Shown here piece after piece: positions 33,179 through 56,327 of a DNA stretch of 64,000 nucleotides. Made by a program: the position numbers and the translations under genes. This DNA comes from a virus, in IMG/VR virus record IMGVR_UViG_3300025889_000085, positions 34,370-98,369 of that record. The stretch is one strand, 5' to 3'. The notes below the pieces were generated by a model. The model had not been told where the DNA came from. It made no database searches and was given only the letters and a program-made list of their open reading frames with translations. How positions within the stretch are numbered: position 1 is the first letter of the stretch; each line of letters begins with the position of its first letter.

Positions 33179-33496
33179 ATGGAAAATTCTATTAACACGC
33201 TGGTAGATCAAGTTAGACAGTCTACTAACTATCAAATCAACAAAAAAATTCTTAGAGAAAAAATTAAAACGGATCTGTTACTGCCTTATAACAACGGCAT
33301 GTTTATAGTCACACAAGAACTGTTGGCATTTTTGGCTACCTGGCCCGATGACGTATTGTACCTCGAAGACACTTATCAAAATCCTGTAGAAGTCAATCGC
33401 AAAGAGTTACTAGAATCTGCTAGACAGCACTATCAAACTGTAATGAATACTTGGCATCAACAACATGCAGAACTCAAACAAGTCAGAAAAATCTAG
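33179..33496 (+). CDS. Hypothetical protein (possibly fibre-assembly/chaperone-like)
   Basis: 105-aa ORF, first gene after the promoter, overlaps the next gene. Confidence 0.5.
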   Translation: MENSINTLVDQVRQSTNYQINKKILREKIKTDLLLPYNNGMFIVTQELLAFLATWPDDVLYLEDTYQNPVEVNRKELLESARQHYQTVMNTWHQQHAELKQVRKI

Positions 33497-34286
33497 AGGC
33501 GTAGTTATTTTTGCATTCAATTCTGTCAGGGTTGATTATGTAAAAATTGCAGGACGTTCTGCCAGATTGATAAAACATTTCTTACAAATACCAGTTACTG
33601 TAATTACTGATAGTGACGTAGCAGACAATGTCTTTGATCGAGTTATTAAAATCGAAAACAAAGATTCTAACTTTAGATATACTAGCGATGGCAAAACTAC
33701 TGAATGGCGAAATTTTGGCAGGCACCTGGCCTATGAACTAACACCTTATGATGAAACTATTTTAATAGATGGAGATTATTTTATATTAGACAGTAATTTG
33801 AATAAATTCTGGTCTATAGACTTTGAATATAAAATAGTGACTACCAGCAACAGTCCTGACCAAACCATGAGCAATGCTATGGGACACAGGGGATTTAATC
33901 TGCTATGGGCAACGGTTGTCATGTTTCGTAAAACTAAATTTACTAAAACATTTTTCGATCTAATCGGCAGAGTGCAGAAAAACTATGCCTATTATTATAA
34001 ACTGTTTAATTTAACAGGTCCTTATAGAAATGATTTTGCTTTTGCAATAGCAGATTTAGTTATCAATGGTTATACAAAAGATCCTAGAAACTATTTTCAC
34101 AATGCTATGTTAACGATAGAGCAACCTATTCGAAATATTGAAGTAAGGAATAGTCTTTTGGTCGTCAGAGAATCGCAACGAGCACACGTTATTTCACAAC
34201 AAAATATTCACATCATGGACAAAGATTTTTTGATGAGCGACAATTGCCATAATTTTGTAGAAAGCATAGTCAGTGAGCCAGCATAA
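33465..34286 (+). CDS. Glycosyltransferase, GT-A fold (GT8-like)
   Basis: GVVIFA..., LTPYDETILIDGD (DxD), RNDFAF, HIMDK. Confidence 0.7.
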   Translation: MQNSNKSEKSRGVVIFAFNSVRVDYVKIAGRSARLIKHFLQIPVTVITDSDVADNVFDRVIKIENKDSNFRYTSDGKTTEWRNFGRHLAYELTPYDETILIDGDYFILDSNLNKFWSIDFEYKIVTTSNSPDQTMSNAMGHRGFNLLWATVVMFRKTKFTKTFFDLIGRVQKNYAYYYKLFNLTGPYRNDFAFAIADLVINGYTKDPRNYFHNAMLTIEQPIRNIEVRNSLLVVRESQRAHVISQQNIHIMDKDFLMSDNCHNFVESIVSEPA

Positions 34287-35130
34287 AGACAGTCAAGGTT
34301 TTGTAACCTTTGCACAAAATACTGACCAAGTTAACTATCTACAATTGGCTTATGTACAGTGCATGAGCATAAAACTTACGCAGAAAATTAACAAGTATGC
34401 GGTTATTGTTGACAAAAAAACAGAAAATCAAATTGAACGACATCATCGCGAAATGTTTGATTACATTATTGTTCTAGACAATGATACCACTACCGATGTT
34501 GCTAGATTTAACAACGAATGGCAGGTTTTTAACCTAACACCATTTAAGGAAACTGTAAAACTAGAAAGTGATTTGCTGTTTACAAGATCGATTGATCATT
34601 GGTGGAACACATTTAGGCTGCGGGATATAGTACTCAGCGTGAGCTGCAAAAATTATCAAGGCCTAAATTCTAATGTCAGGTTTTATAGAAAATTATTTGA
34701 CGACAACGGGTTGCCAGACGTCTACAATGGTCTGATGTATTTTAGATATACCAAAACTGCACATGATTTTTTTAACAGGGCTAAAGAAATTTTTCAAGAA
34801 TATACGGCTATTTCGGATCATGCTTTGGTTAATTGCAGAGAAGTACACCCCAGTACCGATGTTGTTTATGCTATTGCTGCTAGTATAATTGGAGAGGAAC
34901 ATTGTACATTACCAGCAGCAGACTTTATTAATTTTGTACATATGAAACCCCAAATTAATAACAACAGGCATGAGCGATGGCAAAAGGATTTCATAACAGA
35001 ATTAGACCAAGGCATGATAAGAGTAAATATGTATAACCAATATGATCCTTTTCACTATTATGATAAATCATATGTTACTGAGGAAATAATCAATGAGTAT
35101 AGAACAAGATGCGGCAAAATTTTGGGCTGA
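34273..35130 (+). CDS. Glycosyltransferase, GT-A fold (GT8-like), paralog of the preceding gene
   Basis: GFVTFAQN, LTPFKETVKLESD (ExD), YNGLMYF, FVHMKP. Confidence 0.65.
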   Translation: MSQHKDSQGFVTFAQNTDQVNYLQLAYVQCMSIKLTQKINKYAVIVDKKTENQIERHHREMFDYIIVLDNDTTTDVARFNNEWQVFNLTPFKETVKLESDLLFTRSIDHWWNTFRLRDIVLSVSCKNYQGLNSNVRFYRKLFDDNGLPDVYNGLMYFRYTKTAHDFFNRAKEIFQEYTAISDHALVNCREVHPSTDVVYAIAASIIGEEHCTLPAADFINFVHMKPQINNNRHERWQKDFITELDQGMIRVNMYNQYDPFHYYDKSYVTEEIINEYRTRCGKILG

Positions 35131-35485
35131 AGTAGAACAATTAGAAAAAAACAATCAAAGTACTGAGCCAGTATACGAATATAGAATTTACTATGAAGAA
35201 GATGGAACAGTTGTTTCTGGTCAACCTGTCAGGCTTGACCGAGCAGACGGGAATCCTTTACCAATTGGTCCTTATATAACAGTTTCCCTTGAAGAATATA
35301 GAAATCTAGGCAACAAAATAGTTAAAGATGGTGCGCTATATCAACCACCAAGAGCTAACCACGTTCAAGCACTTTTAGAAAAAGCAGACAGTGGTCAATA
35401 TGTAGTTAAAAACAATGCCGCACTAGCCATCAATGAAAATGAAACTTATCAAGACGTAGAACAGTATGGAAAAAAATCTGATTGA
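35093..35485 (+). CDS. Hypothetical protein
   Basis: 130-aa ORF overlapping the upstream GT; EYRIYYEEDG. Confidence 0.55.
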   Translation: MSIEQDAAKFWAEVEQLEKNNQSTEPVYEYRIYYEEDGTVVSGQPVRLDRADGNPLPIGPYITVSLEEYRNLGNKIVKDGALYQPPRANHVQALLEKADSGQYVVKNNAALAINENETYQDVEQYGKKSD

Positions 35486-35525
35486 TATTGCAGAAAAGTT
35501 ACTTAAATTTCAGGTTAACCTATAA

Positions 35526-36194
35526 ATGAAGATATGGGTTTTTGGTCATAGTTTTAGCTTACCTTACAAAGTGGAATTTGGATGGCCTGATCATTTAAAA
35601 AAGTATTTTAATTGTGAGGTTGTAAACTTAGCAAAGGCTGCTATTGACAATTTATATATCTATAATTCATATTTAGAAGTCCAAAAGCAGATAGCAAAAG
35701 ATGATGTAGTTATTATAGGATGGAGTCATCCCTCCCGTAAACTGTTTATTTTAGATAACAACAACATCCATCAGACTAGTATAATAGATAAAAGTTTTTA
35801 CTTCAAATCTAAAACAAAAGAATTTATACGCAGTACTGGTGGAAGTGCTGATAGTGCTGAAAAGTTTTCATTGATGAATCCTATAGACGGTACATTAAGT
35901 TATTATAATGATTGGTTTAATAAATATTTTTCTAAACCAGAACAATCATTGAATTTTCAAGCATATTATGATAGCGTTTTGCTTACTAACACAAGTAGAT
36001 ACATTCCGTTTTTCTTTAGTAAAAATAGTATAAGTGATATTGACATACGGAATTATACTGAATTGTGTATGTTAGACTATATTATAGATAACAAATTAGA
36101 ATTAAGTAAAACAGACGTTCATGCAAATGAACAAGGTCATTCCGAATGGGCCAATATATTAATAAAAATTATAGAAACAAATAATGTTAGTTGA
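35526..36194 (+). CDS. SGNH/GDSL-hydrolase-like protein (AT-rich insert)
   Basis: VFGHSFS (GDS-like block I), GWP, IIGWS, DVHANEQGH (block V). Confidence 0.6.
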   Translation: MKIWVFGHSFSLPYKVEFGWPDHLKKYFNCEVVNLAKAAIDNLYIYNSYLEVQKQIAKDDVVIIGWSHPSRKLFILDNNNIHQTSIIDKSFYFKSKTKEFIRSTGGSADSAEKFSLMNPIDGTLSYYNDWFNKYFSKPEQSLNFQAYYDSVLLTNTSRYIPFFFSKNSISDIDIRNYTELCMLDYIIDNKLELSKTDVHANEQGHSEWANILIKIIETNNVS

Positions 36195-37101
36195 TATCGC
36201 AGACTTAGACTGCATCTATTTAAGTTACGATGAACCCAAGAAAGAAGAGTTTTGGATTAAGATCCAAAACATGGTGCCTTGGGCAAAACGAGTGGACGGA
36301 GTACACGGTAGTGATGCAGCACACAAAGCCGCTGCTCGTGCAAGCGAAACAGAAAGGTTTGTGCTAATAGATGGAGATAACATCCCTGATCCAAATTTTT
36401 TTAATTTACAATTGCGATTAACAGAACGCAATCAGGATCATGTATTTCGTTGGAAAGCACGTAATGAAATAAATGGCTTACAGTATGGCAACGGGGGAAT
36501 TAGTTGTTGGACTAAGCAGTTTGTAGAGTTGATGCAAACACACGAACACAGTGATGGCAGTGATGATACTTGTGTAGAATTCTGTTTTGACCCTAAGTAT
36601 CAAGCAATGCACGACTGCTATAGCACAACCTACCCTAACGGTAGTCCCTATCAAGCATGGCGTGCAGGATTTAGAGAAGGCGTAAAAATGTGTTTAGACC
36701 GAGGCGCAAAACCTACACTGCAAGAATTTGAACAACGTGTGCATCAACGTAACTACGATCATCTTTGCATCTGGCAAACTGTAGGCAGAGATGTGGAAAA
36801 CGGTTGGTGGGCAATATATGGTGCAAGACTAGGCACATATCTTACAATGTGTAAAGAATGGGATTACAGACAAGTTCAAGATTTTAACTATTTGAAAAAG
36901 TTATGGGGAAGTTTTGGTAAAGACACAGATGATGCCAGCGTGAGACTGGCAGACATACTAAAACAAAAACTAGGCTTACCCATTGCAGAACTTGATGCAG
37001 ACCAAAGCCGTTTTTTTAAGCATCATTATCGACAGAGTCAACATAATTTAGGAACAACTGTAACTGAAATGGACATAATCCGTAAACAGGAAGGTTGGTA
37101 A
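36184..37101 (+). CDS. Glycosyltransferase-like protein (GT-A fold)
   Basis: IYLSYDEP, RVDGVHGSDAAHKAAA, FVLIDGDN (DxD), NGLQYGNGG, AWRAGFREG. Confidence 0.65.
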   Translation: MLVDIADLDCIYLSYDEPKKEEFWIKIQNMVPWAKRVDGVHGSDAAHKAAARASETERFVLIDGDNIPDPNFFNLQLRLTERNQDHVFRWKARNEINGLQYGNGGISCWTKQFVELMQTHEHSDGSDDTCVEFCFDPKYQAMHDCYSTTYPNGSPYQAWRAGFREGVKMCLDRGAKPTLQEFEQRVHQRNYDHLCIWQTVGRDVENGWWAIYGARLGTYLTMCKEWDYRQVQDFNYLKKLWGSFGKDTDDASVRLADILKQKLGLPIAELDADQSRFFKHHYRQSQHNLGTTVTEMDIIRKQEGW

Positions 37102-38186
37102 TGACTTGGCAATGTGGTGCTATTGATAGTGGTGTTACTATTTTTCCTGATGCAAAAATACGGCCTTGTTGTTTGGTTTCTGCTGATTATAGTAAGCCTA
37201 TTAGTGAAATAACTAACCCTAATAGATTCCAAGACATCAAAAATGAAGACAAGCCTGAAGCTTGTCGCGCTTGTTGGAGCAAAGAAATTAATGGCTGGGA
37301 AAGTATCAGACCGTATTACGATTCAGGCATAGGTGCTACTAAGCAAATTAAATTCTTAGATATCCGTAATACAAATCAATGTAACATAAAATGTAGGTAC
37401 TGTGGCCCTCATTTTAGTAACCAATGGGCTAAAGAATTATCAATATTTCCTGCAATCAAACAGACAGAAATAACTCATCTATTAGATACAATATTAACAG
37501 AAGATTTAATTGACTTGTATTTTACTGGTGGGGAACCATTTATATCTGCTGACCATTTTAATGTTATAACTAAATTAATCGACATGGGTTATAGTAAAAA
37601 CATTGTATTGCGTTATAATACAAATTTAACCGTGTTGGGATATAAAAATAATGACTTTTTTAAGTTATGGAAAAATTTTAAAAAAGTTCATATAACTGTT
37701 AGCATTGATGCAATTGGTACAGAACTCGAACATATTCGATCTGGTGCATCGTGGACTACTATAAACAATAATTTGGAAACAATACAAAATAAAAATTTAA
37801 AAAATTTAACTGTGACATTATCTCCTGTTGTGAGTTTATTAAATATTTGGTTTCTGCCAGACTTGCTTAAATTTACTATTGCAAAAAACCTTCAAGTTGA
37901 TTTAATACCGTTATACGGGCCGGATTATTTAGACATTTCTGCAATACCTAAAGATTTAAAACCGTTGGCTAAAGAAAAACTGAACAAAATAAAAGACCAT
38001 ATTAAAAATTCAAAATATAACGAATTAATTTACAAATTAGACAATGTTGATAATGAATTTTTATTCACTACAACACTAAGACATATTTTATTATTAGACA
38101 AGTTACGCAATGAAAATCTTTTTGATTTATTGCCTTTTAAACAATATGCAATCGATAATACACTAAGAAATAACGAATATGAATAA
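37095..38186 (+). CDS. Radical SAM protein with N-terminal Twitch/SPASM-like domain (AT-rich; start may be ATG 37101)
   Basis: CNIKCRYC, FTGGEP, YNTN, SIDA; N-terminal C...RPCC...CRAC. Confidence 0.88.
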   Translation: MVMTWQCGAIDSGVTIFPDAKIRPCCLVSADYSKPISEITNPNRFQDIKNEDKPEACRACWSKEINGWESIRPYYDSGIGATKQIKFLDIRNTNQCNIKCRYCGPHFSNQWAKELSIFPAIKQTEITHLLDTILTEDLIDLYFTGGEPFISADHFNVITKLIDMGYSKNIVLRYNTNLTVLGYKNNDFFKLWKNFKKVHITVSIDAIGTELEHIRSGASWTTINNNLETIQNKNLKNLTVTLSPVVSLLNIWFLPDLLKFTIAKNLQVDLIPLYGPDYLDISAIPKDLKPLAKEKLNKIKDHIKNSKYNELIYKLDNVDNEFLFTTTLRHILLLDKLRNENLFDLLPFKQYAIDNTLRNNEYE

Positions 38187-39567
38187 GAGCGTATTTTTAA
38201 CAGGAGCAGAAAATATGCGGGACTTGTTAGGGCCCAGTCTTTGTTTGGCTAAATGGAAACAAGTTAGTCTGCATTTACCTACAGGCCTAAACAACAGTTG
38301 CTATCATCCTCCACTACACCAAATTGACGCAGCACAAGTTCAACACAATCCCAGCGCACTGCACAATACCGAACATAAAAAACAGCAACGTCAGATCATG
38401 CTTCGAGAAGAACGTCCAAGCGAGTGCAGTTACTGCTGGACACAGGAAGACTTGGGCAATTTAAGCGACAGGCACTATCGCAGCGGCGAGCCTTGGGCCG
38501 CAAAAGATTACCACAGTATCTTAGAGTCAACAGGCCATGAGGATGTTCTCCCTTCCTACGTTGAAGTAAATTTTAATCACGCTTGTAATCTTAAGTGCAG
38601 TTATTGCAGTCCTCAGTTTAGTAGTACATGGGATGAGGAAATTCAACGGCATGGTGCTTTTCCAACAGTGCCTTTGCACAATGCACCTGAACACTTTACG
38701 GGACGCAATAGACCTATACCAGCAAGGGAACAAAATCCCTATGTAGATGCATTTTGGCAGTGGTGGCCCGAACTGTATCCTGAACTGGAACATTTTAGAA
38801 TGACTGGTGGCGAACCTTTAATGGATCGAAACACTTATCGTGTGTTTGACTATGTGCTGGCCAATCCCAGTCCTCGCTTACACATAAACGTGACCAGCAA
38901 CTTTAGTGTTGAAGATAATTTGTTTGAAAAATATTTGGATTATGTTAAACAGTTGACTACAAACGAGCCAAGGTATTTGGAGCACTTCATGCAATACGTT
39001 AGTCTTGACTGTATGTTTGAACGTGCAGAATATGGCAGACATGGCATGAACTTTGAACGAGTTTGGGAAAACGTAAATAGATTTCTCAATGAAGTTCCTA
39101 CACGTAGCAGTTTGACATTCATCATTACTATGAATACCCTGAACATAACAGGGTTTCATGAAATTATGAATGCCATATACGGGTTGAGAATGATCTACAA
39201 CAAAGACTATCAGCGTGTTTGGTTTGATACTCCTATACTGCGTCAGCCTGCTTGGCAAAACATACAGATTTTGCCAGAGTTATATGTGGACTACTTGGAA
39301 GAACCTTGGGCATTTATGATGAAAAACATAAATGAAAATAAGGAAAATAAACTACATGGATTCAAAGATTATGAACTTCACAGACTGCAACGAGTAATCG
39401 ATTATATGCGGGAAGGTTGCAAATTAGATCCTGAATATGTTAAAATGCAACAGGCAAACTTTTATCGATTCTTCTCAGAACATGATCGTCGCAGAGGTAC
39501 AGACTTTTTGACAACTTTTCCAGAGATGACGGAATTTTGGACAACTTGTAAACATTATGCAAAATGA
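38179..39567 (+). CDS. Radical SAM protein with N-terminal Twitch-like domain (CxH variant)
   Basis: CNLKCSYC, MTGGEP; N-terminal CLAKW...SCYH...CSYC. Confidence 0.9.
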   Translation: MNKSVFLTGAENMRDLLGPSLCLAKWKQVSLHLPTGLNNSCYHPPLHQIDAAQVQHNPSALHNTEHKKQQRQIMLREERPSECSYCWTQEDLGNLSDRHYRSGEPWAAKDYHSILESTGHEDVLPSYVEVNFNHACNLKCSYCSPQFSSTWDEEIQRHGAFPTVPLHNAPEHFTGRNRPIPAREQNPYVDAFWQWWPELYPELEHFRMTGGEPLMDRNTYRVFDYVLANPSPRLHINVTSNFSVEDNLFEKYLDYVKQLTTNEPRYLEHFMQYVSLDCMFERAEYGRHGMNFERVWENVNRFLNEVPTRSSLTFIITMNTLNITGFHEIMNAIYGLRMIYNKDYQRVWFDTPILRQPAWQNIQILPELYVDYLEEPWAFMMKNINENKENKLHGFKDYELHRLQRVIDYMREGCKLDPEYVKMQQANFYRFFSEHDRRRGTDFLTTFPEMTEFWTTCKHYAK

Positions 39568-49009: not shown

Positions 49010-49754
49010 TAGTTTCATATGGGGCAGCGAACTAGCAGATAGTCCGCACGGTGGCCCAGACGGATACAGTAAAAATACTTTTACAGCATTGTTATCTCAC
49101 GGACATCAATATATTTGTGCAGCCTATCCTGGTAATGGAAATGATTCTATTTCAAGACAGGTAATAAATTTTTTGCAAGTACAAGGCAATAGCAAAATTT
49201 TTGTTATTGTTTCTTGGACTTTTCCAGGCCGTTATGAATTTAATTTCGGTTTTGATAGTAAAATACCAAATTGGCAAGTTATAAATCATTGGACCATTGG
49301 AAATAAGTTTTATTCAAAAAATAATGAACACAAAAAATTAATATCTGACCATGTAAACAAGGCCAAACTTAACAATGTGTATGATTTTGCTGTAAATTAT
49401 TTTCAATATGTTGCTTCCTCAGAATATTGGGAGACTTATGCTACCATTAAAGAAATATTATTTTTACAAAGTTTTCTACAAAGCAAAAAAATACCTTACT
49501 TGTTTACCTGTGCCGACGCATCTTTTTTAAATAACTCAACAATTTTGTCAAACGATCTGACCATTAACGCATATTATGAAAATATCGATTTTAGTAAATG
49601 GTTTTTCTTCCCTGGTAATAAAGGCTTTTACGAGTGGGCAACTCACAATAAATACCCTATAGGAGATACTCATCCTTTAGAAGCAGCTCACAGAGATGCT
49701 GCTGGATTAATGAAAGACAAATTCTATGAAATGGTTAAAAAACATCTGGAATAA
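48987..49754 (+). CDS. SGNH/GDSL-hydrolase-like protein
   Basis: GGDSFIWG, PGNGN, VSWT, DTHPLEAAH. Confidence 0.7.
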   Translation: MIIVAGGDSFIWGSELADSPHGGPDGYSKNTFTALLSHGHQYICAAYPGNGNDSISRQVINFLQVQGNSKIFVIVSWTFPGRYEFNFGFDSKIPNWQVINHWTIGNKFYSKNNEHKKLISDHVNKAKLNNVYDFAVNYFQYVASSEYWETYATIKEILFLQSFLQSKKIPYLFTCADASFLNNSTILSNDLTINAYYENIDFSKWFFFPGNKGFYEWATHNKYPIGDTHPLEAAHRDAAGLMKDKFYEMVKKHLE

Positions 49755-49827: not shown

Positions 49828-49831
49828 TTAC

Positions 49832-50569
49832 ATGATAAGAAATATTCTTACATTTGGGGATAGTTTTACCTACGGCGAAGAACTGTCCGATAACAAAAGT
49901 GCCTGGCCTTATATTGTAGCAAGAAGATGTGATGCTACTGTGCAAAATTTTGCGACACCTGGAGGCAGCAATGATCAGATAGTAAGAAAATTTATAAGAG
50001 TATTATCTTCCGATAAAATACCGTTACACAATTCTGTCCAGTTGAGTAAACAATTAATTATTATCGGTTGGAGTATTCCTGGAAGAACAGAATTCCATGA
50101 CCAAGAAGGCTTTTTTGATGTATGGCCTGCTAGGTCAGGCAGGATTTGGATGGATCCTGTTTATAGTCATAGACATCAGTTAACAAAGTATGTTTCTCTT
50201 TACCACAATGACTCGTCATTCTATGAAAAATTTTTACAACAAATTATTATAGTTCAAACTCTTGCAAAGAATTATGGTTTAAAATGTCTTATGCTTAATA
50301 TAATGCAAAATGACTATTATAAAACAAAAACAGATTTTTTAACTGATCCAGATAATGGTGGTAATTCTGATATTGCATATGCAACTTTTGATGATTATGA
50401 TAAAAAGATAGATAAAAAATTTTTTATTGATTGGGGAGTCGGTGGAATGATGGAATGGGTCCCAGAAAACAGTCCCAAAGGCCCTAACGGACACTTTTTA
50501 GAACCTGGACACATAATTGTGGCAGCACACGTACATGAAGCTATTAGGAATCTCGGCTGGGTTTCATGA
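49832..50569 (+). CDS. SGNH/GDSL-hydrolase-like protein
   Basis: FGDSFTYG, AWP, PGGSN, IIGWS, GHFLEPGH. Confidence 0.7.
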   Translation: MIRNILTFGDSFTYGEELSDNKSAWPYIVARRCDATVQNFATPGGSNDQIVRKFIRVLSSDKIPLHNSVQLSKQLIIIGWSIPGRTEFHDQEGFFDVWPARSGRIWMDPVYSHRHQLTKYVSLYHNDSSFYEKFLQQIIIVQTLAKNYGLKCLMLNIMQNDYYKTKTDFLTDPDNGGNSDIAYATFDDYDKKIDKKFFIDWGVGGMMEWVPENSPKGPNGHFLEPGHIIVAAHVHEAIRNLGWVS

Positions 50570-52025
50570 CAGTGGCGTTACTGTGATTGATGACGGTGAA
50601 ATTAAGTTTGCCGCACACAGTGAACGCTATAGTAAATCGAAGCACGATGAACATATCAATGATCAAATTCTATGTGAAGCACTCGGTTATGGGCAACCAG
50701 ACTGTTTGGCATATTATGAACGTCCATGGCTTAAAAAGATTAGACAAATCTACAGTGGACAATACGATTTAGCATTTGACACCACAACATTAACAGTTGG
50801 TGGATATTTAAACAAGCATAGTAGTATACGCGGCTTACAGAAAATAAAGACACATACTTACAATCATCATCTTAGCCATGCGGCTGCAGGATTTCAAACA
50901 TCACCTTATAACAAGGCAACCGTTGTAGTTATTGATGCTATAGGTGAATGGGACACTATCAGCATTTGGGCAGCAGAATACGATCGAAAAGGTCAAGCAC
51001 AGTATCGCAAACTTTGGCGTCAACGTTACCCACATAGCATAGGTATGTTTTACAGTGCCATGACCAAACACGTGGGTCTAAAACCCATGGACGAAGAATA
51101 CATCATGATGGGCATGGCAGCATACGGTAGAGTACATTGGGATAACTTTATGAAAGCAAGATATGTTGCCAATGAGTCTACAGCCGAATTTAAAGAAAAT
51201 CTGCACATAGGTGTAAATAGTGAGGAATGGATTAGAACTGAAGATTTCGATATCGCTGCAGGCGCACAGAGTTTGACAGAAAACTTAATTTATAATATAA
51301 TGCGTAAGGCAAGAGATTTTGGATTCAGCAGTAATCTTGTTTACATGGGTGGGGTGGCACTTAACTGCCTTGCAAATAGAAACTTAGGAGCGTACTTTGA
51401 AAACATTTGGATTATGCCTAATCCTGGCGATGCTGGTAGTAGCCTTGGCGCCGCTGCTTTGGCCTATGGTCATCGTGTTAGCTGGACTAATGCTTTTCTT
51501 GGCCACAATATCGCTGGGGATTATCCTACCGTTCGTGCCCTTGATGCTCTTACTACAGATAAAATAGTAGGCATTGCATCTGGCAGAGCAGAATTTGGAC
51601 CCAGAGCACTGGGTAATCGTAGTCTGCTTGCTGATCCCAGAGGACCTGATATCAAAGATAAGGTCAACGAAATAAAGCGCCGCCAAAAGTTTCGTCCATT
51701 TGCTCCAGTTATTTTGGAAGAACAAGCACAAGAATATTTCCATATGCCGCCGGGTTTTTCGAACAGTAGATATATGCAGGCTACTGCTTACTGTAGACAT
51801 CCTGAACAATTTCCTGCTATAATACACCATGACGGTTCAAGCCGTGTCCAAACTGTGCCTGCTGATGGTACGGGTATTAGAGAGTTATTAGAAAAATGGT
51901 TTGTGTTAACGGGTTGTCCGATGTTATTGAATACCAGTTTAAACATCAGAGGCGAGCCCATGGTCAACGACAGAGCAGATGCAGACAGGTTTGAACGACT
52001 ATACGGAATTCGAGTTTTATCATGA
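50535..52025 (+). CDS. O-carbamoyltransferase (NodU/CmcH/TobZ family)
   Basis: GISAGFHDS, HHLSHAA, DAIGE, GGVALNC, PGDAG, EFGPRALGNRS, FRPFAP, DGSSRVQTV, LLNTSLN; start MKLLG at 50535. Confidence 0.93.
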   Translation: MKLLGISAGFHDSGVTVIDDGEIKFAAHSERYSKSKHDEHINDQILCEALGYGQPDCLAYYERPWLKKIRQIYSGQYDLAFDTTTLTVGGYLNKHSSIRGLQKIKTHTYNHHLSHAAAGFQTSPYNKATVVVIDAIGEWDTISIWAAEYDRKGQAQYRKLWRQRYPHSIGMFYSAMTKHVGLKPMDEEYIMMGMAAYGRVHWDNFMKARYVANESTAEFKENLHIGVNSEEWIRTEDFDIAAGAQSLTENLIYNIMRKARDFGFSSNLVYMGGVALNCLANRNLGAYFENIWIMPNPGDAGSSLGAAALAYGHRVSWTNAFLGHNIAGDYPTVRALDALTTDKIVGIASGRAEFGPRALGNRSLLADPRGPDIKDKVNEIKRRQKFRPFAPVILEEQAQEYFHMPPGFSNSRYMQATAYCRHPEQFPAIIHHDGSSRVQTVPADGTGIRELLEKWFVLTGCPMLLNTSLNIRGEPMVNDRADADRFERLYGIRVLS

Positions 52026-52459
52026 AAGAAAAACATAAACAGGCCTTTATGCGAACAGCAGAAGTATTTGCAGAATGTAGTACTGCTGTTCGTGCTAAAG
52101 TAGGTGCAATCATTGTCAAGGACGACAGGATTATCAGTATTGGTTACAATGGTATGCCGTCAGGTTGGGATAACACCTGCGAAAACTTTGTAGGCTATGA
52201 CAAAGGCGGCGAAGAAAGACTAAACACCAAGCCAGAGGTACTACATGCAGAAACAAACGCAATCGCTAAGTTGGCAAAAAGCACGGAAAGTGGTGATGGT
52301 GCTGTATTGTTTATTACTCATAGCCCGTGTTTGGACTGTGCAAAACTTGTTTATCAAAGTGGAATTCACAGTGTTTACTATCGCAGTCATTATCGTGATA
52401 CTGCTGGAATTGAATTCCTTAAGAAATCTGGAGTCCGAGTAGAACAGTTAGATGTTTGA
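52022..52459 (+). CDS. dCMP deaminase
   Basis: KVGAIIV, GYNG, HAETNAI, SPCLDC. Confidence 0.92.
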   Translation: MKEKHKQAFMRTAEVFAECSTAVRAKVGAIIVKDDRIISIGYNGMPSGWDNTCENFVGYDKGGEERLNTKPEVLHAETNAIAKLAKSTESGDGAVLFITHSPCLDCAKLVYQSGIHSVYYRSHYRDTAGIEFLKKSGVRVEQLDV

Positions 52460-54275
52460 CGTATTTTATCAAGACCGTAAACCCAATCTTTTTGCATTTG
52501 AACAGCCTGCTGCAAGTTTAGAACAAGCGGCTGAACTGAGTCGTACTGAATACTTTTGGTACATACACGGCAATAACGATTATACAGGCTTTGACTTCGA
52601 ATGGCAACCTCCACCATGGGAACGTGATCATGTACATGTATTTGCCAGTCAATGGCAACGTAATGCGGATGTTTACTTTGCTCGCAAGTGGACTGCTGGT
52701 AATCGAGAATGGCACTTCAGACAGGAACAGTCAGTTCGGCGTTTAGTGGACATGACCAAATGGTCTGTGCCCGAGTTGTGTGATACCGCAGATTTTGATT
52801 TTAGTTGGCATCCTGACACCATTGAACCCGACTACGAATATAGATTTCCCACACAACACCAACGTGAAGGCGGACCTATATACAACGGCACTGCTGGTAT
52901 AAAATATTCAAATAGCCAAAAGGTCCGTGCAAATGCTACACAGATATTTTACATGGATTTTCTTGATCCTGGCAGCGCAGAACGATACCAAAAACTGCAA
53001 GTACTGTATCCTGACATTAAACGAACTAGATATGTGGATAATCATTTAACAGTTTTCAAACGTATCGTCAACTTAGCCACAACAGAGTTTGTTTGGATTA
53101 CCAGCAGCATTTGTGATTACACAGATTTTGACTTTACTTGGCATCCAGAAGAAAGTCAACGTGAAATGATTCACTGCTTTTACAGCGAAAGCCAAAAACG
53201 TGGTGATACATTTTTGATACATGTGCAAAGTTTTAAAAATCAAATGTATGATTTGGAGTTATTAGATTGGTTTAATGTAATCAATTATGTCGACACATTT
53301 CGTGTGCCCAGAGTAGAAATGCCTGTACATTATTATCAAGGTGATAATTTAGTTTCGGAAGTAAAGAACTATCAATTCACTGCACCATACGCTCTGTTTA
53401 CCAATCAACCAAATCTTTATACTCATTGGCATCCTTGCCTTTGGACCGAAAAAGATCGTATTGCAACAGCATTTAGCACTAGCAAGGCGGTGTGTGCCAT
53501 ACCCCGTGATGTAAAGGCACATTTACGCACACAAATCTACGATTATCCCCACGTAGAGGACCGAGACGTACACTTTTTCGCTGAAGAACCGTTGGATATT
53601 ATCTATATCAGTAATGGCGAACCCGACGAACAATTTTATTTTGATTGGCTACAGGCCTGTGTCAATCCCAGTAGGCGTTACGTTGTAAAATGGGTTCGAG
53701 GTGTGAATGGTAGAACACAGGCCTATCAGGCTGCTGCCCGAATGAGCGAAACTCCCTGGTTCTTTGCAATATTTGCCAAATTAAAAGCAGATCGAGATTT
53801 CGATTGGCGCTGGCAACCGGATTATTGGCAACAGCCCAAGCACTATATTTTCCATGCACGTAATCCTATAAACGGTTTGGAGTATGGGCATCAAGCCATA
53901 ATTGCTTATAACAAAAAATTAGTTTTGGCTAATAATGATCCAGGGTTAGATTTTACACTAACACAAGAACACGAAGTGGTTCCTATACTAAGTGGCGAAG
54001 CCATGTTTAACCAAAGTGCTTGGATGACATGGCGTACTGCTTTCCGTGAAGTATTAAAACTACAGCAGTTTCAAGAGCAAACACCTACTGTAGAAAACAA
54101 ACATAGACTAAACACTTGGTTGACCAAAGCCACTGGCCAGTACAGTGAATACTGCTTAAAAGGCGCACAAGATGCAGTCGATTATTATCGTGAAGTCAGT
54201 GGTGACTACGATAAACTAAAACTCAGTTACGATTGGCAGTGGTTACAAGAACGCTTTAACGCAGGTAACCCTTAA
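52452..54275 (+). CDS. Multi-repeat glycosyltransferase-like protein; C-terminal unit paralogous to 36184..37101
   Basis: Repeated FDFxWxP units; C-terminal IYISNGEP...GVNGR...NPINGLEYGH...WRTAFRE; FAK in place of DGD. Confidence 0.55.
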   Translation: MFDVFYQDRKPNLFAFEQPAASLEQAAELSRTEYFWYIHGNNDYTGFDFEWQPPPWERDHVHVFASQWQRNADVYFARKWTAGNREWHFRQEQSVRRLVDMTKWSVPELCDTADFDFSWHPDTIEPDYEYRFPTQHQREGGPIYNGTAGIKYSNSQKVRANATQIFYMDFLDPGSAERYQKLQVLYPDIKRTRYVDNHLTVFKRIVNLATTEFVWITSSICDYTDFDFTWHPEESQREMIHCFYSESQKRGDTFLIHVQSFKNQMYDLELLDWFNVINYVDTFRVPRVEMPVHYYQGDNLVSEVKNYQFTAPYALFTNQPNLYTHWHPCLWTEKDRIATAFSTSKAVCAIPRDVKAHLRTQIYDYPHVEDRDVHFFAEEPLDIIYISNGEPDEQFYFDWLQACVNPSRRYVVKWVRGVNGRTQAYQAAARMSETPWFFAIFAKLKADRDFDWRWQPDYWQQPKHYIFHARNPINGLEYGHQAIIAYNKKLVLANNDPGLDFTLTQEHEVVPILSGEAMFNQSAWMTWRTAFREVLKLQQFQEQTPTVENKHRLNTWLTKATGQYSEYCLKGAQDAVDYYREVSGDYDKLKLSYDWQWLQERFNAGNP

Positions 54276-55362
54276 CTGTACTAACTACACGTTCTACTTC
54301 CGTATCTTCCATTTCTGGATAGATAGGTAAACTCAAACATTCAACACAGAACGCACTGGCTTCCCTGTATAACTCTGCTACGTAGTTAATATAGGGATAG
54401 CCCACAGGATATTCGTATAAAGGACGTTCGTAGTGTACCTTTACTTCAATGCCTCTGGTAGTCATGTGTTTAAGTAAGCCACTACGGTCCACAGTTTTAA
54501 TTACATACTTGTGCCAAGCATGTTCTGCACCTTCAGTTACTCGAGGTGTGTCTACAATGTCCCGAAGTTCTTGTGTATAGTAATTGGCTATCTGTTGGCG
54601 TCTTCGCTGCCACTGATCAAAATGCTCTAACTTAACCAACATTTGAGCGCAGTCTACTTCTGACATTTTACTGTTAGTGCCAGTTATGTCATGACTGTTG
54701 GTTTTGCCGTTGTCTCTGTAGTCACGTATGGTTTTGGCATCTGCCAAATTGTCCACTAACACCATGCCACCTGATCCATAGTTGGGCAAGTTCTTTGTAG
54801 GATCAAAACTTAAAATGCTTACGTCTCCAAGACAGCCACTGGGCATGCCCCGATAACTTGCACCAAAACTCTGTGCAGCATCCTCGATAATTTTTATGTC
54901 TTTATTAAAAAATCTACAGATGTTGTAGAATCTGTCGTAGTCAACAACGTTGCCAAATATGTTTACGTACATTACTGCCTGTATGCCGGCAGCATCTATG
55001 GCATAGTCCATACTTTCCAAATTTATCAGTGCTTGATCATCTGTGTCGCATAACACAGGTGTGTTGCCGTTTAATAACACAGCGTTTATTGTAGCAATAA
55101 AACTAATTGTAGGAATAATAATCTTTACAGGTTCTTGAAACAACAGTTGTTGTGCAAATACTAAAGCCTGTGTGCCGCTGCCTACTGCTACTGCATAACG
55201 TCTATGGCAACGTTTTGCTATTTCCTGTTCAAACTTTTGAGTATAGTCACCGTCCAGCATTTGTCCACTGGTGTAGACCTGATCTGTTACTGCTAACAGT
55301 TCTTCACGTAGGTTTTGATATTGACGTGCTACGCCGGTAAAAGGGATAATTTGTGTTGCCAA
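54256..55362 (-). CDS. DegT/DnrJ/EryC1/StrS PLP-dependent sugar aminotransferase
   Basis: SGTQAL, FIATIN, IEDAAQSFG, SFDPTKNL, GSGGM, LSLPIYP. Confidence 0.93.
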   Translation of the reverse strand: MATQIIPFTGVARQYQNLREELLAVTDQVYTSGQMLDGDYTQKFEQEIAKRCHRRYAVAVGSGTQALVFAQQLLFQEPVKIIIPTISFIATINAVLLNGNTPVLCDTDDQALINLESMDYAIDAAGIQAVMYVNIFGNVVDYDRFYNICRFFNKDIKIIEDAAQSFGASYRGMPSGCLGDVSILSFDPTKNLPNYGSGGMVLVDNLADAKTIRDYRDNGKTNSHDITGTNSKMSEVDCAQMLVKLEHFDQWQRRRQQIANYYTQELRDIVDTPRVTEGAEHAWHKYVIKTVDRSGLLKHMTTRGIEVKVHYERPLYEYPVGYPYINYVAELYREASAFCVECLSLPIYPEMEDTEVERVVSTVKGYLR

Positions 55363-56327
55363 AATTTACTTCCTACTAACCAAGCGTGATATCGTTCAAA
55401 ACCTTGTTCTACATCTACTGTGGGGAAATAGCCTAAGTCTGCCTGTGCTCGTTCAATACTAAGTCTACCACGTTTGGGAAAGTTTAAGTCTCTATCTTGA
55501 ACTTCGTAACTGCCACGACCTACAATATCTATACAAAGTTGGGCAGCACCCTCTAACGTTAGCGCAATGGGATTACTGCGTGTGATGTTATAGATGTTGC
55601 CATTGGCTTTGGATTCTAATGCCGCCAATGCAATTCCTTTGGCAGTGTCGTCGACGTGTGTAAAGTCTAATACTTCCTGTGCGCCTTGTACTTGTAAGGT
55701 CTTGCCCTGTAATGCACTTAGCATGAACTTGCTGACTACTCTGTCGTCGACATCCAATTCACCATAGACTGCACTGGGACGAACAATAACATAGTCCATG
55801 CCTATGCGGCGTGCATAGTCTGCTACAATTTGTTCGCCCGCTAATTTCATAATAGCGTACTGACCTTGTGGCGTACACTGTGCAGTTTCTGTGACAAAGT
55901 CTTGTTCAAAATCTCCATAGACCATACTGGAACTAATGTAGACAAACTTCTTTACACAATGATTTTTGCACTCTTCCAATAAGTTAATTAAACCAGTGAT
56001 CATTACTTCACTGCCTACCACAGGATTTTGTAGTACTACACGCTGTCTAGGAAAACTGGCAAGGTGTACTACCATCTTAGGGTGGAATGCCAACATCATA
56101 TCTGAAATGCCTTTGCGATTTCTAATATCAATGTTGTGTGTGTTACATCTTACTTTGCGTTTGCGTTCACGCTTTAAGTATTCAAGTTCATCTTTAGGAA
56201 TAAAATTGTAATTGGTAAAACTGTCTATACCAAAACATGTATGTCCTTCTTGTTCTAGATATTTTACAACATTATGTCCAATGAATCCACTGGCACCAGT
56301 TACTAATACGTTCAATTGTTGCCCCAC
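55329..56327 (-). CDS. NAD-dependent NDP-sugar epimerase/dehydratase (extended SDR)
   Basis: VLVTGASGFIG, SSSMVYG, YAIMK, RPSAVYG, DFTHVDD. Confidence 0.92.
   Translation of the reverse strand: MGQQLNVLVTGASGFIGHNVVKYLEQEGHTCFGIDSFTNYNFIPKDELEYLKRERKRKVRCNTHNIDIRNRKGISDMMLAFHPKMVVHLASFPRQRVVLQNPVVGSEVMITGLINLLEECKNHCVKKFVYISSSMVYGDFEQDFVTETAQCTPQGQYAIMKLAGEQIVADYARRIGMDYVIVRPSAVYGELDVDDRVVSKFMLSALQGKTLQVQGAQEVLDFTHVDDTAKGIALAALESKANGNIYNITRSNPIALTLEGAAQLCIDIVGRGSYEVQDRDLNFPKRGRLSIERAQADLGYFPTVDVEQGFERYHAWLVGSKFWQHKLSLLPA

Follow-up and report, generated by a model that had tools for sequence, protein, structure and literature searches.

Radical SAM enzymes with SPASM or twitch domains are mostly peptide maturases. 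Carbamoyltransferases of the TobZ/NodU type, DegT and SDR enzymes are standard tools for tailoring aminoglycosides and nucleoside antibiotics. In phages, the DNA glucosyltransferase genes of T4 are early genes, and radical SAM, PLP and transferase enzymes all take part in known thymidine hypermodification. Among solved structures, the closest relative of the twitch domain described below is BtrN, which oxidises an aminocyclitol alcohol and carries a Cys4 auxiliary cluster (PMC10337720). The enzymes themselves belong to the N-terminal-twitch radical SAM family NF033640 (NCBIfam N_Twi_rSAM, cut-off 170 bits), for which we found no paper and no member with a known substrate.

Here we analyse a window of 64,000 nucleotides from a 98-kb contig, a fragment of a ~350-kb uncultured T4-like giant phage. 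A sequence-only reading of the window had proposed that an island of radical SAM and sugar-tailoring enzymes builds a modified glycan.

Layout and conservation of the island

Twenty-one plus-strand ORFs lie tightly packed and in the same orientation between 33179 and 54275. Neighbouring ORFs overlap at 17 of the 20 junctions and the widest gap is 77 bp, so that the earlier description of ~21 kb of mostly overlapping, co-oriented genes holds. The run follows tail-fibre-like genes, as had been noted, and is convergent with two minus-strand genes (54256-55362 and 55329-56327).

28097-29884, 30045-30650, 30684-32156 and 32169-33110, plus strand: tail-fibre-like genes 5' of the island (PHROG)
33126-33175, plus strand: regulatory spacer with promoter, hairpin and T-run (sequence reading)

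Tail-fibre-type PHROGs are matched by ORFs 28097 and 30684, and baseplate genes lie farther 5'.

The genes do co-occur across phage relatives. A syntenic core is present in ~35 viral contigs (L001-L035) at 50-83% identity, and because the gene order is the same in these independent contigs, the arrangement is not due to chance. The core consists of five of the six twitch radical SAMs, the GT-like genes, the 359-aa protein 47930 and the carbamoyltransferase. The B12 radical SAM, the sixth twitch radical SAM and other genes occupy variable slots. A second, distant lineage (G005) has the core at 31-66% identity, and in both lineages the same fibre-like genes precede the island. The cultured Ralstonia phage RsoM2USA has a reduced set of island genes.

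In the relatives, the slots hold a NodS-like methyltransferase, an APS-kinase-like P-loop protein (18 loci), an LbH acyltransferase, an SDR and extra radical SAMs. Judged by their sequences, these genes recall oligosaccharide-decorating enzymes. The pooled accessory genes of the islands include, in one relative, a tryptophan-halogenase-family gene, which is atypical for glycans.

The spacer before the first gene contains a perfect sigma-70-type promoter (TTGACA at 33126-33131, a 17-nt spacer and TATAAT at 33149-33154). It is overlapped by a hairpin with a 7-bp stem (33138-33162), followed by a T-run (33163-33175). No other 12/12 promoter match occurs between 28 and 48 kb, and only three occur in the whole contig. 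Most of 25 relatives have promoter-like hexamers and a hairpin at the equivalent spot, four of them with perfect promoters. Going by these motifs, the hairpin and T-run likely end the transcript of the fibre operon, and that of the island likely starts at the promoter. With a conserved promoter of its own behind a terminator-like hairpin, the island is not just an extension of the tail-fibre transcript. If T4 early promoters are a guide, the sigma-70-type promoter suggests that the island is expressed earlier than the late structural genes.

Radical SAM enzymes

The island encodes six N-terminal-twitch radical SAMs and one of the B12 type, exactly as first read:

37095-38186, plus strand: N-terminal-twitch radical SAM no. 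1, 363 aa, accessory (NF033640 246 bits)
38179-39567, plus strand: N-terminal-twitch radical SAM no. 2, SC-x-H subtype, core (NF033640 318 bits)
40634-41971, plus strand: N-terminal-twitch radical SAM no. 3, SC-x-H subtype, core (NF033640 298 bits)
41968-43275, plus strand: N-terminal-twitch radical SAM no. 4, CC subtype, core (NF033640 390 bits)
43675-45444, plus strand: B12-binding-type radical SAM, 589 aa, accessory (Radical_SAM 48 bits, B12-binding 28 bits)
45441-46655, plus strand: N-terminal-twitch radical SAM no. 5, core (NF033640 332 bits)
46648-47943, plus strand: N-terminal-twitch radical SAM no. 6, core (NF033640 291 bits)

All six twitch enzymes exceed the family cut-off (246-390 bits) and keep CX3CX2C and four N-terminal Cys. 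No. 1 has only paralogue-level matches in relatives (23-31% identity). Orthologs reach 59-79% identity for no. 2, 55-69% for no. 5 and 73-83% for no. 6, and no. 3 has a 51% ortholog in RsoM2USA. No. 4 is nearest to the family consensus, and at E<=1e-10 it has 4750 homologs in metagenomes. Every one of the five core enzymes forms its own conserved orthogroup, whereas identity between paralogues is only 21-33%, which implies five distinct jobs.

The BtrN likeness claimed for the twitch domain is borne out at residue level. The twitch region of no. 4 can be aligned with BtrN residues 163-257, the C-terminal twitch domain, and its four invariant Cys coincide with the four Cys of that segment. The best solved match of the domain is BtrN and not a peptide maturase.

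The B12-binding domain of 43675 stays under its cut-off of 32.1 bits, and the protein scores 98.6 bits against the PhpK-subfamily model (cut-off 600). A 30% homolog exists in one relative only (L030), in a different slot. Since the enzyme is missing from nearly all relatives, methylation is an accessory feature of this genome, and the methylated product of the sequence-only reading does not carry over to the island as such.

Neighbourhoods of bacterial NF033640 genes are heterogeneous. PhyH dioxygenases are commonest (7 of 140), GT2 genes occur five times and a WelO5 halogenase once; some of the genes adjoin GT2, NTP-transferase or GDSL genes, and UbiA and ABC transporters also occur as neighbours. 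The relatives of our phage also carry further N-twitch copies amid small unknown genes, distant from sugar genes.

Candidate transferases and SGNH-like proteins

33465-34286, plus strand: GT-A/GT8-like candidate glycosyltransferase, core (homology to 34273)
34273-35130, plus strand: GT-A/GT8-like candidate glycosyltransferase, core (weak GT8 match)
35526-36194, plus strand: SGNH-like protein, GHS block I, accessory (motif check)
36184-37101, plus strand: core protein, predicted GT-A/nucleotidyltransferase fold and helical C-terminal domain (AF2, Foldseek, alignment)
48987-49754, plus strand: SGNH-like protein (paralogue of 49832, GDS)
49832-50569, plus strand: SGNH-like protein (DUF6071 41.5 bits, Lipase_GDSL 23.1 bits)
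50517-52025, plus strand: NodU/CmcH/TobZ-type carbamoyltransferase, core (Carbam_trans_C 163 bits, Carbam_trans_N 142 bits)
52452-54275, plus strand: 607-aa protein with 36184-like C-terminal domain (blastp)

About five GT-like genes had been counted, although none of the proteins reaches a Pfam GT model. The count is only partly supported: by 36184, by the C-terminus of 52452 and, weakly, by the pair 33465/34273, but not by 39557, which has no detectable family. The families of 33465 and 34273 are homologous (hhalign probability 97.9) and have invariant D102/D104 and E98/D100; 34273 has a weak GT8/glycogenin match (E 0.03) covering the nucleotide-binding/DxD half. The AF2 model of 36184 (pLDDT 81) has a GT-A/nucleotidyltransferase fold over residues 1-153, a fold that is common to nucleotidyltransferases too. 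Its best Foldseek matches (E 1.3e-3) are HddC, RmlT and PBCV-1 A64R, and it aligns to IspD, GlmU and GT-A enzymes with VIA Z 8.0-9.3 (rmsd ~3-4 A, ~130 aligned). D63-G-D65 is invariant in the alignment. After excluding the radical SAMs, 36184 is the best-conserved gene, with a mean column identity of 74% and a 40% ortholog in RsoM2USA. A homologous domain ends 52452 (~381-548, blastp E 2e-15), whose versions in relatives range from 547 to 1427 aa and have no Pfam match, the long ones included.

The three SGNH-like proteins of the sequence-only reading fare unequally. Protein 49832 falls just short of the Lipase_GDSL cut-off (23.6 bits), and it shares a GDS block I and a G-x-ND block with its paralogue 48987 (E 1e-7). 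Protein 35526 has no Pfam match and GHS only; it is linked through ~9 relatives at 32-44% identity, which cluster with 49832-like proteins. The NodU/TobZ assignment holds, and orthologs of the carbamoyltransferase are 57-67% identical (47% in RsoM2USA).

Remaining genes and the DegT-SDR-ThyA block

33179-33496, plus strand: conserved first gene, 105 aa, no Cys (relatives)
35093-35485, plus strand: small acidic protein, 130 aa (position)
39557-40633, plus strand: 358-aa protein, phage-only family (slot distribution)
43272-43700, plus strand: small membrane protein, 142 aa (hydropathy scan)
47930-49009, plus strand: core 359-aa protein (AF2 model, homologs)
52022-52459, plus strand: dCMP deaminase (135 bits to 4p9c, annotated deoxycytidylate deaminase)
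54256-55362, minus strand: DegT/DnrJ/EryC1-family PLP sugar aminotransferase (Pfam 272 bits)
55329-56327, minus strand: extended-SDR NDP-sugar epimerase/4,6-dehydratase-like enzyme (Epimerase 161 bits, GDP_Man_Dehyd 130 bits)

The first gene is kept in at least 22 relatives at 50-66% identity, and 35093 is conserved in position and fast-evolving in sequence (~30% identity). Neither has a Pfam, PHROG or NCBIfam match. The 39557 family occupies variable slots with up to five copies in some relatives; 25 members and a profile gave no Pfam or PDB match, and none of 88 metagenomic homologs has a Pfam domain. Protein 47930 has at least 6749 metagenomic homologs without a Pfam domain or name. Its model is confident (pLDDT 89) and without a clear structural relative: Foldseek gave nothing under E 0.1, and there is a weak resemblance to a cyclophilin-like barrel with a helical insert (VIA-wide Z 7-8.5, ~140 aligned).

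A hydropathy scan found no TM segment in any core protein; the chemistry is therefore cytoplasmic. The sole island protein with TM-like segments, 43272, has no homolog among the relatives.

The dCMP deaminase, overlooked in the sequence-only reading, belongs to nucleotide metabolism; although it lies within the run, it is no fixed member of the island. It is missing at the island position in G005 and lies elsewhere in another relative (G001).

The converging genes are a DegT aminotransferase and an NDP-sugar epimerase-like SDR, in line with the first reading. Their nearest NCBIfam models are PseC for DegT (183 bits, cut-off 423.5) and dTDP-glucose 4,6-dehydratase for the SDR (119 bits, cut-off 365). 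The pair is conserved near ThyA in five of five relatives. Together with ThyA it forms one travelling block, which lies 17 kb from the island in the second lineage.

Proposed function

To explain this operon, we propose that its enzymes assemble a glycan on virion proteins in the cytoplasm and edit it by radical chemistry, a reading to which we assign a probability of about 0.4. Its firm parts are that the enzymes belong to these families, that they are soluble and conserved as a set, and that the island has a promoter-like element to itself. The operon most likely builds a heavily edited sugar structure. A sugar-type substrate is probable, and given such a substrate, virion proteins are somewhat favoured as the acceptor.

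In this separate operon of soluble enzymes, a sugar-based structure would be built and then chemically edited. The neighbouring SDR and DegT may turn an NDP-hexose of the host into an NDP-amino-deoxy-sugar by way of a 4-keto intermediate. The BtrN-to-BtrR analogy, in which a radical SAM enzyme supplies the ketone, is then needless, as DegT could receive its keto-sugar from the adjacent 4,6-dehydratase-like SDR. Three or four proteins with a GT-A fold (33465, 34273, 36184 and, through its C-terminal domain, 52452) would glycosylate an acceptor in the cytoplasm; the most plausible one is the phage's own set of fibre or virion proteins, whose genes lie directly 5'. The five conserved twitch radical SAMs, and the sixth one here, would each abstract hydrogen from a different sugar C-H. 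Each would carry a SAM cluster together with an auxiliary cluster of the BtrN type, ligated by Cys throughout, and they are expected to oxidise, epimerise or deoxygenate distinct positions. The carbamoyltransferase may then attach O-carbamoyl groups, and SGNH-like enzymes may add or remove O-acyl groups. Finally, lineage-specific slot enzymes (here the B12-type radical SAM, the extra twitch enzyme and 39557) could make the product differ between related phages.

The virion-protein acceptor is plausible from the position of the island. To call it the most plausible target outright, as the sequence-only reading did, overstates what position can carry for an island with its own promoter.

Counted against a glycan are the GT-like proteins that match no Pfam GT model, the 36184 fold that nucleotidyltransferases share, an NF033640 family in which no substrate is known, the promoter, the scattered N-twitch copies, the heterogeneous bacterial neighbourhoods, the halogenase, and a DegT/SDR pair that travels with ThyA.

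Alternative substrates

Alternatively, the operon could make a diffusible small molecule, aminoglycoside-, cyclitol- or nucleoside-like, that acts during infection and off the virion, for example on competing phages, host defences or neighbouring cells. Such a molecule would bear carbamoyl and acyl groups, to which some relatives would add halogen, methyl or phosphate groups. The halogenase in a relative, the PhyH neighbours in bacteria and the scattered twitch copies make such a non-glycan substrate possible. The WelO5, UbiA and ABC transporter neighbours fit as well, as do the solubility of every enzyme, the sigma-70-type promoter, the aminoglycoside-pathway origin of BtrN, and a set that combines carbamoyltransferase, DegT and SDR. 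However, we found no scaffold-forming enzyme such as a 2-deoxy-scyllo-inosose synthase-like cyclase, and no exporter or self-resistance gene among the core genes. A small molecule also leaves the fixed position behind the fibre genes in two lineages unexplained. The prior for such a pathway in a lytic phage is low; we know of no multi-enzyme secondary-metabolite pathway this large in lytic phages. Hence we consider this reading unlikely.

Hypermodified DNA, for example with a complex sugar adduct on a base that evades host restriction and CRISPR, is quite improbable. Precedent exists in the early glucosyltransferases of T4 and in thymidine hypermodification enzymes, and soluble enzymes would suit the task. 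Nucleotide-metabolism genes adjoin the island, with the deaminase within it and again beside an N-twitch radical SAM in G001, and ThyA is preceded by a promoter similar to that of the island. Yet this deaminase is not a constant island gene, and ThyA, paired with DHFR, has the canonical form and scores 309 bits against solved thymidylate synthases. Five relatives, of which four have a completeness of at least 97%, each have one TS-family gene, and thus no dCMP/dUMP hydroxymethylase. The relatives lack TGT/DpdA (control positive in 14 of 14 genomes); a TET/JBP search gave no match, and neither did its control.

The radical SAM array could also target amino-acid residues, either in a peptide or in virion proteins, with RiPP-like chemistry (cross-links, epimerisation or C-methylation), with the transferases decorating secondarily. 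The giant fibre proteins encoded beside the island and the small ORFs 33179 and 35093 are conceivable substrates; the weaker NCBIfam matches of the twitch enzymes are the peptide maturases PapB, WgkB, CcpM and StsB; the B12 enzyme is weakly similar to RiPP C-methyltransferases; and the relative's halogenase would fit. But the small ORFs lack Cys, Pfam and NCBIfam scans of the island proteins found no RRE/PqqD-like domain, leader peptidase or peptide-export family, and ABC transporters occur only beside bacterial homologs. The best solved twitch match is a sugar/cyclitol enzyme, and the remaining conserved core is of sugar type. We give peptide chemistry low odds.

Remodelling of a host envelope glycan (LPS, capsule or a teichoic-acid-like polymer), for instance to block superinfection or aid release, is very unlikely: GT-like, SGNH-like, carbamoyl- and amino-sugar enzymes typify surface-polysaccharide loci, the variable slots are reminiscent of O-antigen diversity and the promoter suggests expression apart from late structural genes, but soluble core proteins count against lipid-linked assembly, the conserved genes include no membrane protein, polyprenyl-phosphate transferase, flippase, polymerase or ligase, the sole TM protein is not conserved, and no integrase was seen in the contig of this phage, a T4-like myovirus of lytic type.

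Comparison with BtrN

The twitch domain of BtrN is C-terminal, whereas in the island enzymes the twitch domain is N-terminal; the Cys positions match.

Phage type and relatives

Genes outside the island place the source contig, judged by sequence, among the T4-like jumbo myoviruses. The contig is 98,369 bp long, with the window at 34370-98369, has no terminal repeat and is 28% complete according to CheckV. Its gp23-type major head protein shares 66-69% identity with its counterparts in Vibrio phage 2.275.O, Pseudomonas phage PA5oct, Sinorhizobium phage Phosso and Xanthomonas phage XbC2. The contig also encodes portal, sheath and baseplate-wedge proteins, an SbcD-like nuclease and a gp55-like late sigma factor:

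window 3545-4348, minus strand: gp55-like sigma factor gene

Near-complete relatives that carry the island measure 338-374 kb. Two giant ORFs lie in the structural region, one of 4473 aa (window 14642-28063, plus strand) and one of 3710 aa outside the window (contig 10459-21591, minus strand). In G005, a relative from a second, more distant lineage, a 3094-aa giant-ORF counterpart (31% identity) lies immediately upstream of the same fibre-like genes. The whole phage cassette also turns up, at 45-68% identity, in contigs that were assigned to bacterial MAGs: L048 (Legionellales), L049 and L050 (Haliscomenobacter sp., 148 and 183 kb) and L046 (Polynucleobacter). These are probably mis-binned phage contigs, and their bins might hint at freshwater hosts.

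A conserved frame with variable slots

The sequence-only reading described a run of overlapping, co-oriented genes behind the tail fibres that meets two oppositely oriented genes. This layout holds. The run has 21 plus-strand ORFs within 33179-54275 (ORFs are named by their start position), and 17 of its 20 junctions overlap. Two minus-strand genes converge on it, a DegT aminotransferase (54256) and an SDR (55329). The co-occurrence that a single system presupposes is also found: about 35 of 41 loci from an IMG/VR scan with one twitch radical SAM enzyme keep the same gene order. A megablast search of 50,697 phage records returned no match for the island.

The core consists of 33179, 33465, 34273, 35093, 36184, 38179, 40634, 41968, 45441, 46648, 47930, at least one SGNH-like gene and the carbamoyltransferase gene 50517, and 52452 usually follows downstream. 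Core proteins of the relatives are 50-83% identical to those of the window. Nearly all relatives lack orthologs of 37095, 39557, 43272 and the putative B12-type enzyme 43675. Among the genes in their slots are those for extra twitch/SPASM radical SAM enzymes, an SDR, 39557-like proteins, an APS-kinase-like P-loop protein (18 loci), a NodS-like methyltransferase, an LbH acyltransferase, an HNH/NUMOD3 homing endonuclease and a tryptophan-halogenase-family enzyme. Such variable slots suggest an arms-race surface.

Two of these accessory genes deserve a remark. The homing endonuclease gene has inserted itself, as a selfish element, into an operon whose genes are otherwise densely packed. The halogenase-family flavoenzyme (E 2e-59) has a probable member at L016:17646-19220; the only 524-aa candidate for this gene occupies the place in L016 from which the carbamoyltransferase is missing.

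G005 (352 kb, 100% complete) has retained this frame: the fibre-like genes stand at one end, the carbamoyltransferase and a 52452-like protein at the other. At L036/L039 and G005:C1:56223-76570, more than ten twitch radical SAM genes stand in a row that ends in the same carbamoyltransferase; the family has 16 matches across the G005 genome.

Promoter-like element and proposed transcription unit

A 68-bp spacer upstream of 33179 contains a perfect TTGACA-17-TATAAT. A hairpin overlaps this sequence, and a T-run comes after it. Perfect sigma-70 matches (TTGACA-N17/18-TATAAT) are found only three times in the whole 98-kb contig (window positions):

33126-33154: in the spacer upstream of 33179
51273-51301, plus strand: within the carbamoyltransferase gene, some 720 bp ahead of the dCMP deaminase gene
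57492-57463, minus strand: where the DHFR gene ends, ahead of ThyA

At the site of the spacer, promoter-like hexamers and a hairpin occur in most relatives. From these consensus matches, we read the spacer as a putative terminator of the fibre operon joined to a putative host-sigma-70 promoter that serves the island. With a terminator in front and a promoter of its own, the island would be a separate transcription unit. T4 early promoters offer an analogy for the timing of sigma-70-type promoters, and by this analogy island expression could precede that of the late genes. In the window, TATAAATA, the late-promoter motif of T4, is depleted (1 occurrence against 7.5 expected) although a gp55-like factor is encoded, and we reject it as the late signal here. 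This clade must have a late promoter other than T4's.

The twitch radical SAM enzymes

All six enzymes that had been called N-terminal-twitch radical SAM proteins belong to a catalogued family. ORFs 37095, 38179, 40634, 41968, 45441 and 46648 match NCBIfam NF033640 (N_Twi_rSAM) over the full length with 246, 318, 298, 390, 332 and 291 bits, where the curated cut-off is 170 bits. Pfam places a SPASM-type segment ahead of the Radical_SAM domain. In all six paralogues the auxiliary-cluster cysteines lie N-terminal to the CX3CX2C motif, and C36, C55, C96 and C99, followed by C150, C154 and C157 of the motif, are invariant (41968 numbering). The six are only 21-33% identical to one another, compared to 50-83% between core proteins of the window and of relatives. 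Hence, the five core twitch enzymes represent ancient orthogroups, each of them maintained separately.

BtrN (PDB 4M7S/4M7T), the dehydrogenase of butirosin synthesis and the archetype of twitch radical SAM enzymes, is the best solved-structure match for the profile of the 41968 group (E 2e-5), and the match is confined to the twitch domain. This N-terminal domain aligns with BtrN residues 163-257, the C-terminus of BtrN, so that its four invariant cysteines coincide with the four of this BtrN stretch. Across the radical SAM core, the segment scores only 1.3 bits against BtrN, with no family-level similarity. BtrN, whose auxiliary cluster is ligated by four Cys, oxidises 2-deoxy-scyllo-inosamine (PMC10337720). 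Like BtrN, the phage enzymes have a SAM cluster and a single auxiliary cluster for which full ligation by Cys is possible. The twitch domain comes first in the phage enzymes and last in BtrN, the phage enzymes are longer (360-460 aa versus about 250-270 aa), and outside the twitch region the similarity is that of radical SAM proteins in general. In their alignments the phage enzymes are BtrN-like in cluster equipment, permuted in domain order and outside BtrN's family. They may work like BtrN, a chemistry that we infer.

The family is abundant in these phages. Relatives of about 350 kb carry 7-13 copies over the cut-off, whereas 14 control genomes carry none. Some of the relatives' copies lie outside the island, among small uncharacterised genes. 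Metagenomic homologs number in the thousands (4750 at E<=1e-10 for paralogue 41968). Bacterial homologs, with 31-47% identity, occur in Bacteroidota, Bdellovibrionota, Elusimicrobiota and others. The neighbours of these homologs (140 neighbours of 49 bacterial loci) are mixed: 7 PhyH dioxygenases, 5 GT2 proteins, 4 ABC transporters and 3 UbiA proteins, besides NTP-transferases, GDSL proteins and one WelO5 halogenase. This sample leans towards tailoring chemistry, though not decisively. Our literature search found no functional study on the substrate or reaction of NF033640, on the family in phages, or on radical SAM enzymes together with a carbamoyltransferase and tail fibres. NF033640 is thus a catalogued family without an assigned reaction.

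The seventh radical SAM enzyme, 43675, had been called B12-type. The radical SAM assignment stands (Radical_SAM, 48 bits), but the B12-binding domain stays below its cut-off (28.0 versus 32.1 bits). Among the class B (B12-dependent) radical SAM methyltransferases (GenK, Fom3, PhpK type), whose cobalamin-binding domain is N-terminal to the radical SAM core, PhpK is the nearest subfamily, with 98.6 bits against a cut-off of 600.

Candidate sugar-modifying enzymes

Three further enzymes are what they had been taken for, at the level of the family. The carbamoyltransferase 50517 is of the NodU/CmcH/TobZ type (Carbam_trans_N 142.4 bits, cut-off 24; Carbam_trans_C 162.9 bits, cut-off 27), but not a NodU equivalog (NF041651, 143.5 bits versus 1000). 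ORF 54256 matches the Pfam DegT/DnrJ/EryC1/StrS family with 272.3 bits over positions 3-359 of 360 and reaches no equivalog (PseC, 183 bits versus 423.5). ORF 55329 is an extended SDR of the NDP-sugar epimerase/dehydratase type (Epimerase 161.4 bits, GDP_Man_Dehyd 129.6 bits); its nearest models are 4,6-dehydratases, with 118.6 bits for dTDP-glucose 4,6-dehydratase against a cut-off of 365.

All five relatives carry both DegT and SDR (55-71% identity; 37% in G005), invariably beside ThyA. In G005, 17 kb separate the DegT/SDR/ThyA block from the island, and one strand encodes both. Therefore, the convergence in the window is one arrangement of two neighbouring conserved blocks. A 111-aa ORF lies between SDR and ThyA (56312-56647, minus strand), and G005 has one at the same position (35% identity). 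From what is known of the families, SDR and DegT could make an NDP-4-amino-4,6-dideoxyhexose without the help of radical SAM enzymes. The proposed analogy to BtrN, which supplies the ketone for the aminotransferase BtrR, is thus unnecessary.

The about five GT-like genes fare unevenly. For 36184, the label needed a structure prediction: the AlphaFold model (pLDDT 81) shows, at its N-terminus, a GT-A/nucleotidyltransferase fold (Foldseek E about 1e-3) and matches GT-A enzymes and nucleotidyltransferases about equally (VIA Z 8.0-9.3, rmsd 3.0-4.5 Å, 125-143 aligned residues). Its D63-G-D65 is invariant. In the ESM Atlas, 36184 meets only viral 'hypothetical' clusters, with a GT2 lead at 0.87. 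ORF 33465 is a homolog of 34273 (hhalign 97.9%), which has a weak match to GT8 (glycogenin; E 0.03). The C-terminus of 52452 is homologous to 36184 and joins the group by this route. ORF 39557 drops out: neither Pfam on 25 family members nor a profile search of 5.8 billion proteins found an annotated relative. We give no weight to what we take to be a GT10-like 'TEK' motif in this family. None of the GT-like proteins has a Pfam GT match, profile-versus-PDB searches gave no usable match for 33465, 36184, 47930 or the 39557 family, and PHROGs and NCBIfam had none for the uncharacterised island ORFs.

Among the three proposed SGNH-like proteins, 49832 alone has matches at the family level (DUF6071 41.5 bits, cut-off 27; Lipase_GDSL 23.1 bits, just under the cut-off of 23.6). 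Of the catalytic blocks (GDS, G, GxND, DxxH), GDS and G-x-ND are present, and block V is a D-x-H or GH variant. ORF 48987 joins as a paralogue of 49832; for 35526, a motif and the relatives provide the only link.

A further puzzle is ORF 47930 (47930-49009, plus strand; 359 aa). Its family has at least 6749 metagenomic homologs and neither Pfam domain nor name. The predicted structure is confident (pLDDT 89) and without a clear structural relative: Foldseek finds no match below E 0.1 and the ESM Atlas nothing. A VIA-wide match is cyclophilin-like, but its Z of 7-8.5 is in the range that the tool calls common, and we therefore assign no function.

What the island may make

We propose that the island encodes cytoplasmic glycan assembly with radical editing on virion proteins. 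First, a cytoplasmic pathway would make NDP-sugars or use existing ones. The GT-A-like proteins would then transfer them, and five or six twitch enzymes would edit defined positions. Finally, carbamoyl and acyl groups would be added, together with lineage-specific extras. A sugar-type substrate is probable. For the full proposal, which remains tentative, we estimate a probability of roughly 0.4. By gene position, virion proteins would be the most plausible acceptor: the position behind the fibre-like genes is fixed in two lineages, and the decoration slots vary.

Alternatively, the product could be a free small molecule, which we consider unlikely. Somewhat more doubtful still is a specific form of this idea, a phage-borne natural-product pathway. 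It would yield a free, heavily tailored, aminoglycoside- or nucleoside-like molecule that is used in infection, for example, against rival phages or host defences. The permuted twitch array and the enzymes that add carbamoyl, acyl and amino groups, in relatives also halogen, methyl and phosphate groups, would suit such a pathway. To our knowledge, no multi-enzyme secondary-metabolite pathway of comparable size has been reported from a lytic phage.

Modification of phage DNA is improbable. A gene that the sequence-only reading overlooked, 52022, could have pointed there: its product is an ordinary dCMP deaminase, which scores 135 bits against 4p9c, a protein annotated as deoxycytidylate deaminase. 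The gene is absent from the island position in G005 and lies elsewhere in the relative G001. We reject it as a pathway member because the enzyme is standard and its position in the island is not fixed. In G001, the ortholog (64%) is one small ORF away from another twitch radical SAM gene (L129:4144-6229; G001:C1 at about 256.1-258.2 kb), a proximity that may be accidental or may point to nucleotide metabolism. ThyA, which adjoins DHFR, is of the canonical type, with 309 bits to solved thymidylate synthases; we reject it as a hydroxymethylase on this ground. Exactly one TS-family gene occurs in each of five relatives, of which four are at least 97% complete; hence, they have no dCMP/dUMP hydroxymethylase. 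TGT/DpdA was not found in the relatives, with a control that was positive in 14 of 14 genomes. A search for TET/JBP was blank, as was its control. With one canonical ThyA, no TGT/DpdA and a deaminase that is not fixed, the known routes to hypermodified bases are not supported.

Equally improbable is a modification of peptide or protein residues, a reaction for which radical SAM arrays might be recruited in RiPP maturation. Pfam and NCBIfam scans of the island proteins found no RRE/PqqD-like element, protease or exporter, and the small island ORFs have no cysteine. By these scans the island does not look like a canonical RiPP maturation cluster, in which a precursor peptide goes with a recognition element, protease or exporter.

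Modification of the host envelope is the least probable reading: a hydropathy scan of the island finds TM-like segments solely in the non-conserved 43272, so the conserved genes include no lipid-linked initiating transferase, flippase or polymerase, which argues for a cytoplasmic acceptor and against assembly of a host-surface polymer.

If the twitch enzymes edit sugars after assembly, glycans would be diversified in a novel way, and the enzymes could supply new biocatalysts for C-H functionalisation. A product located on fibres or capsids would matter for how giant phages adjust their adsorption and escape recognition.

Comparison with known systems

Cultured phages carry reduced or rearranged versions of the set. 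A tblastn search with two twitch enzymes returned only Vibrio phages K566/K567, Ralstonia phage RsoM2USA and one marine SAG contig. RsoM2USA (343.8 kb) has orthologs of 40634 (51%), the carbamoyltransferase (47%), 36184 (40%) and the dCMP deaminase (42%), with the 36184 ortholog about 90 kb from the other members. K566/K567 have four distant, clustered N-twitch genes. All are annotated as 'hypothetical', and the RsoM2USA paper is silent on them (PMC8504454). Being cultured, RsoM2USA makes the question testable at the bench. A marine T4-like environmental viral genome has 12 radical SAM genes plus Fe-S assembly genes (Nishimura et al. 2017, PMC5332604). There, the genes are treated as Fe-S-cluster clients, with no N-terminal twitch architecture, cassette or function given.

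With the tailoring pathways of aminoglycosides, Nod factors and nucleoside antibiotics (BtrN/NeoN, GenK, TobZ/NodU, NodS, DegT), the island has several enzyme classes in common: twitch radical SAM enzymes, a putative B12 radical SAM enzyme, an O-carbamoyltransferase, a PLP sugar aminotransferase and an SDR. The NodS-like methyltransferase and the APS-kinase-like protein of relatives add to this likeness. Unlike these pathways, the island has no scaffold-forming enzyme, reaches no equivalog threshold and is set in a lytic jumbo phage.

Virus-encoded sets for virion glycosylation are known from mycobacteriophages (capsid and tail), chlorovirus PBCV-1 (A64R) and mimivirus (fibril glycans). Like the island, they have soluble, virus-encoded glycosyltransferases beside or among structural genes, in mimivirus also amino-sugar pathways, and the predicted fold of 36184 matches A64R among other GT-A enzymes. 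We know of no phage or giant-virus set with radical SAM enzymes, a carbamoyltransferase or an SGNH set, and of no virus-encoded glycosylation described with five or more radical SAM enzymes. These sets glycosylate virions; for the phages of this clade, a glycan is proposed from the genes. In the island, NF033640 forms an array of five to six old paralogues. We rate the island as probable virus-encoded glycan or sugar tailoring, a known kind of system, centred on the unstudied NF033640 family.
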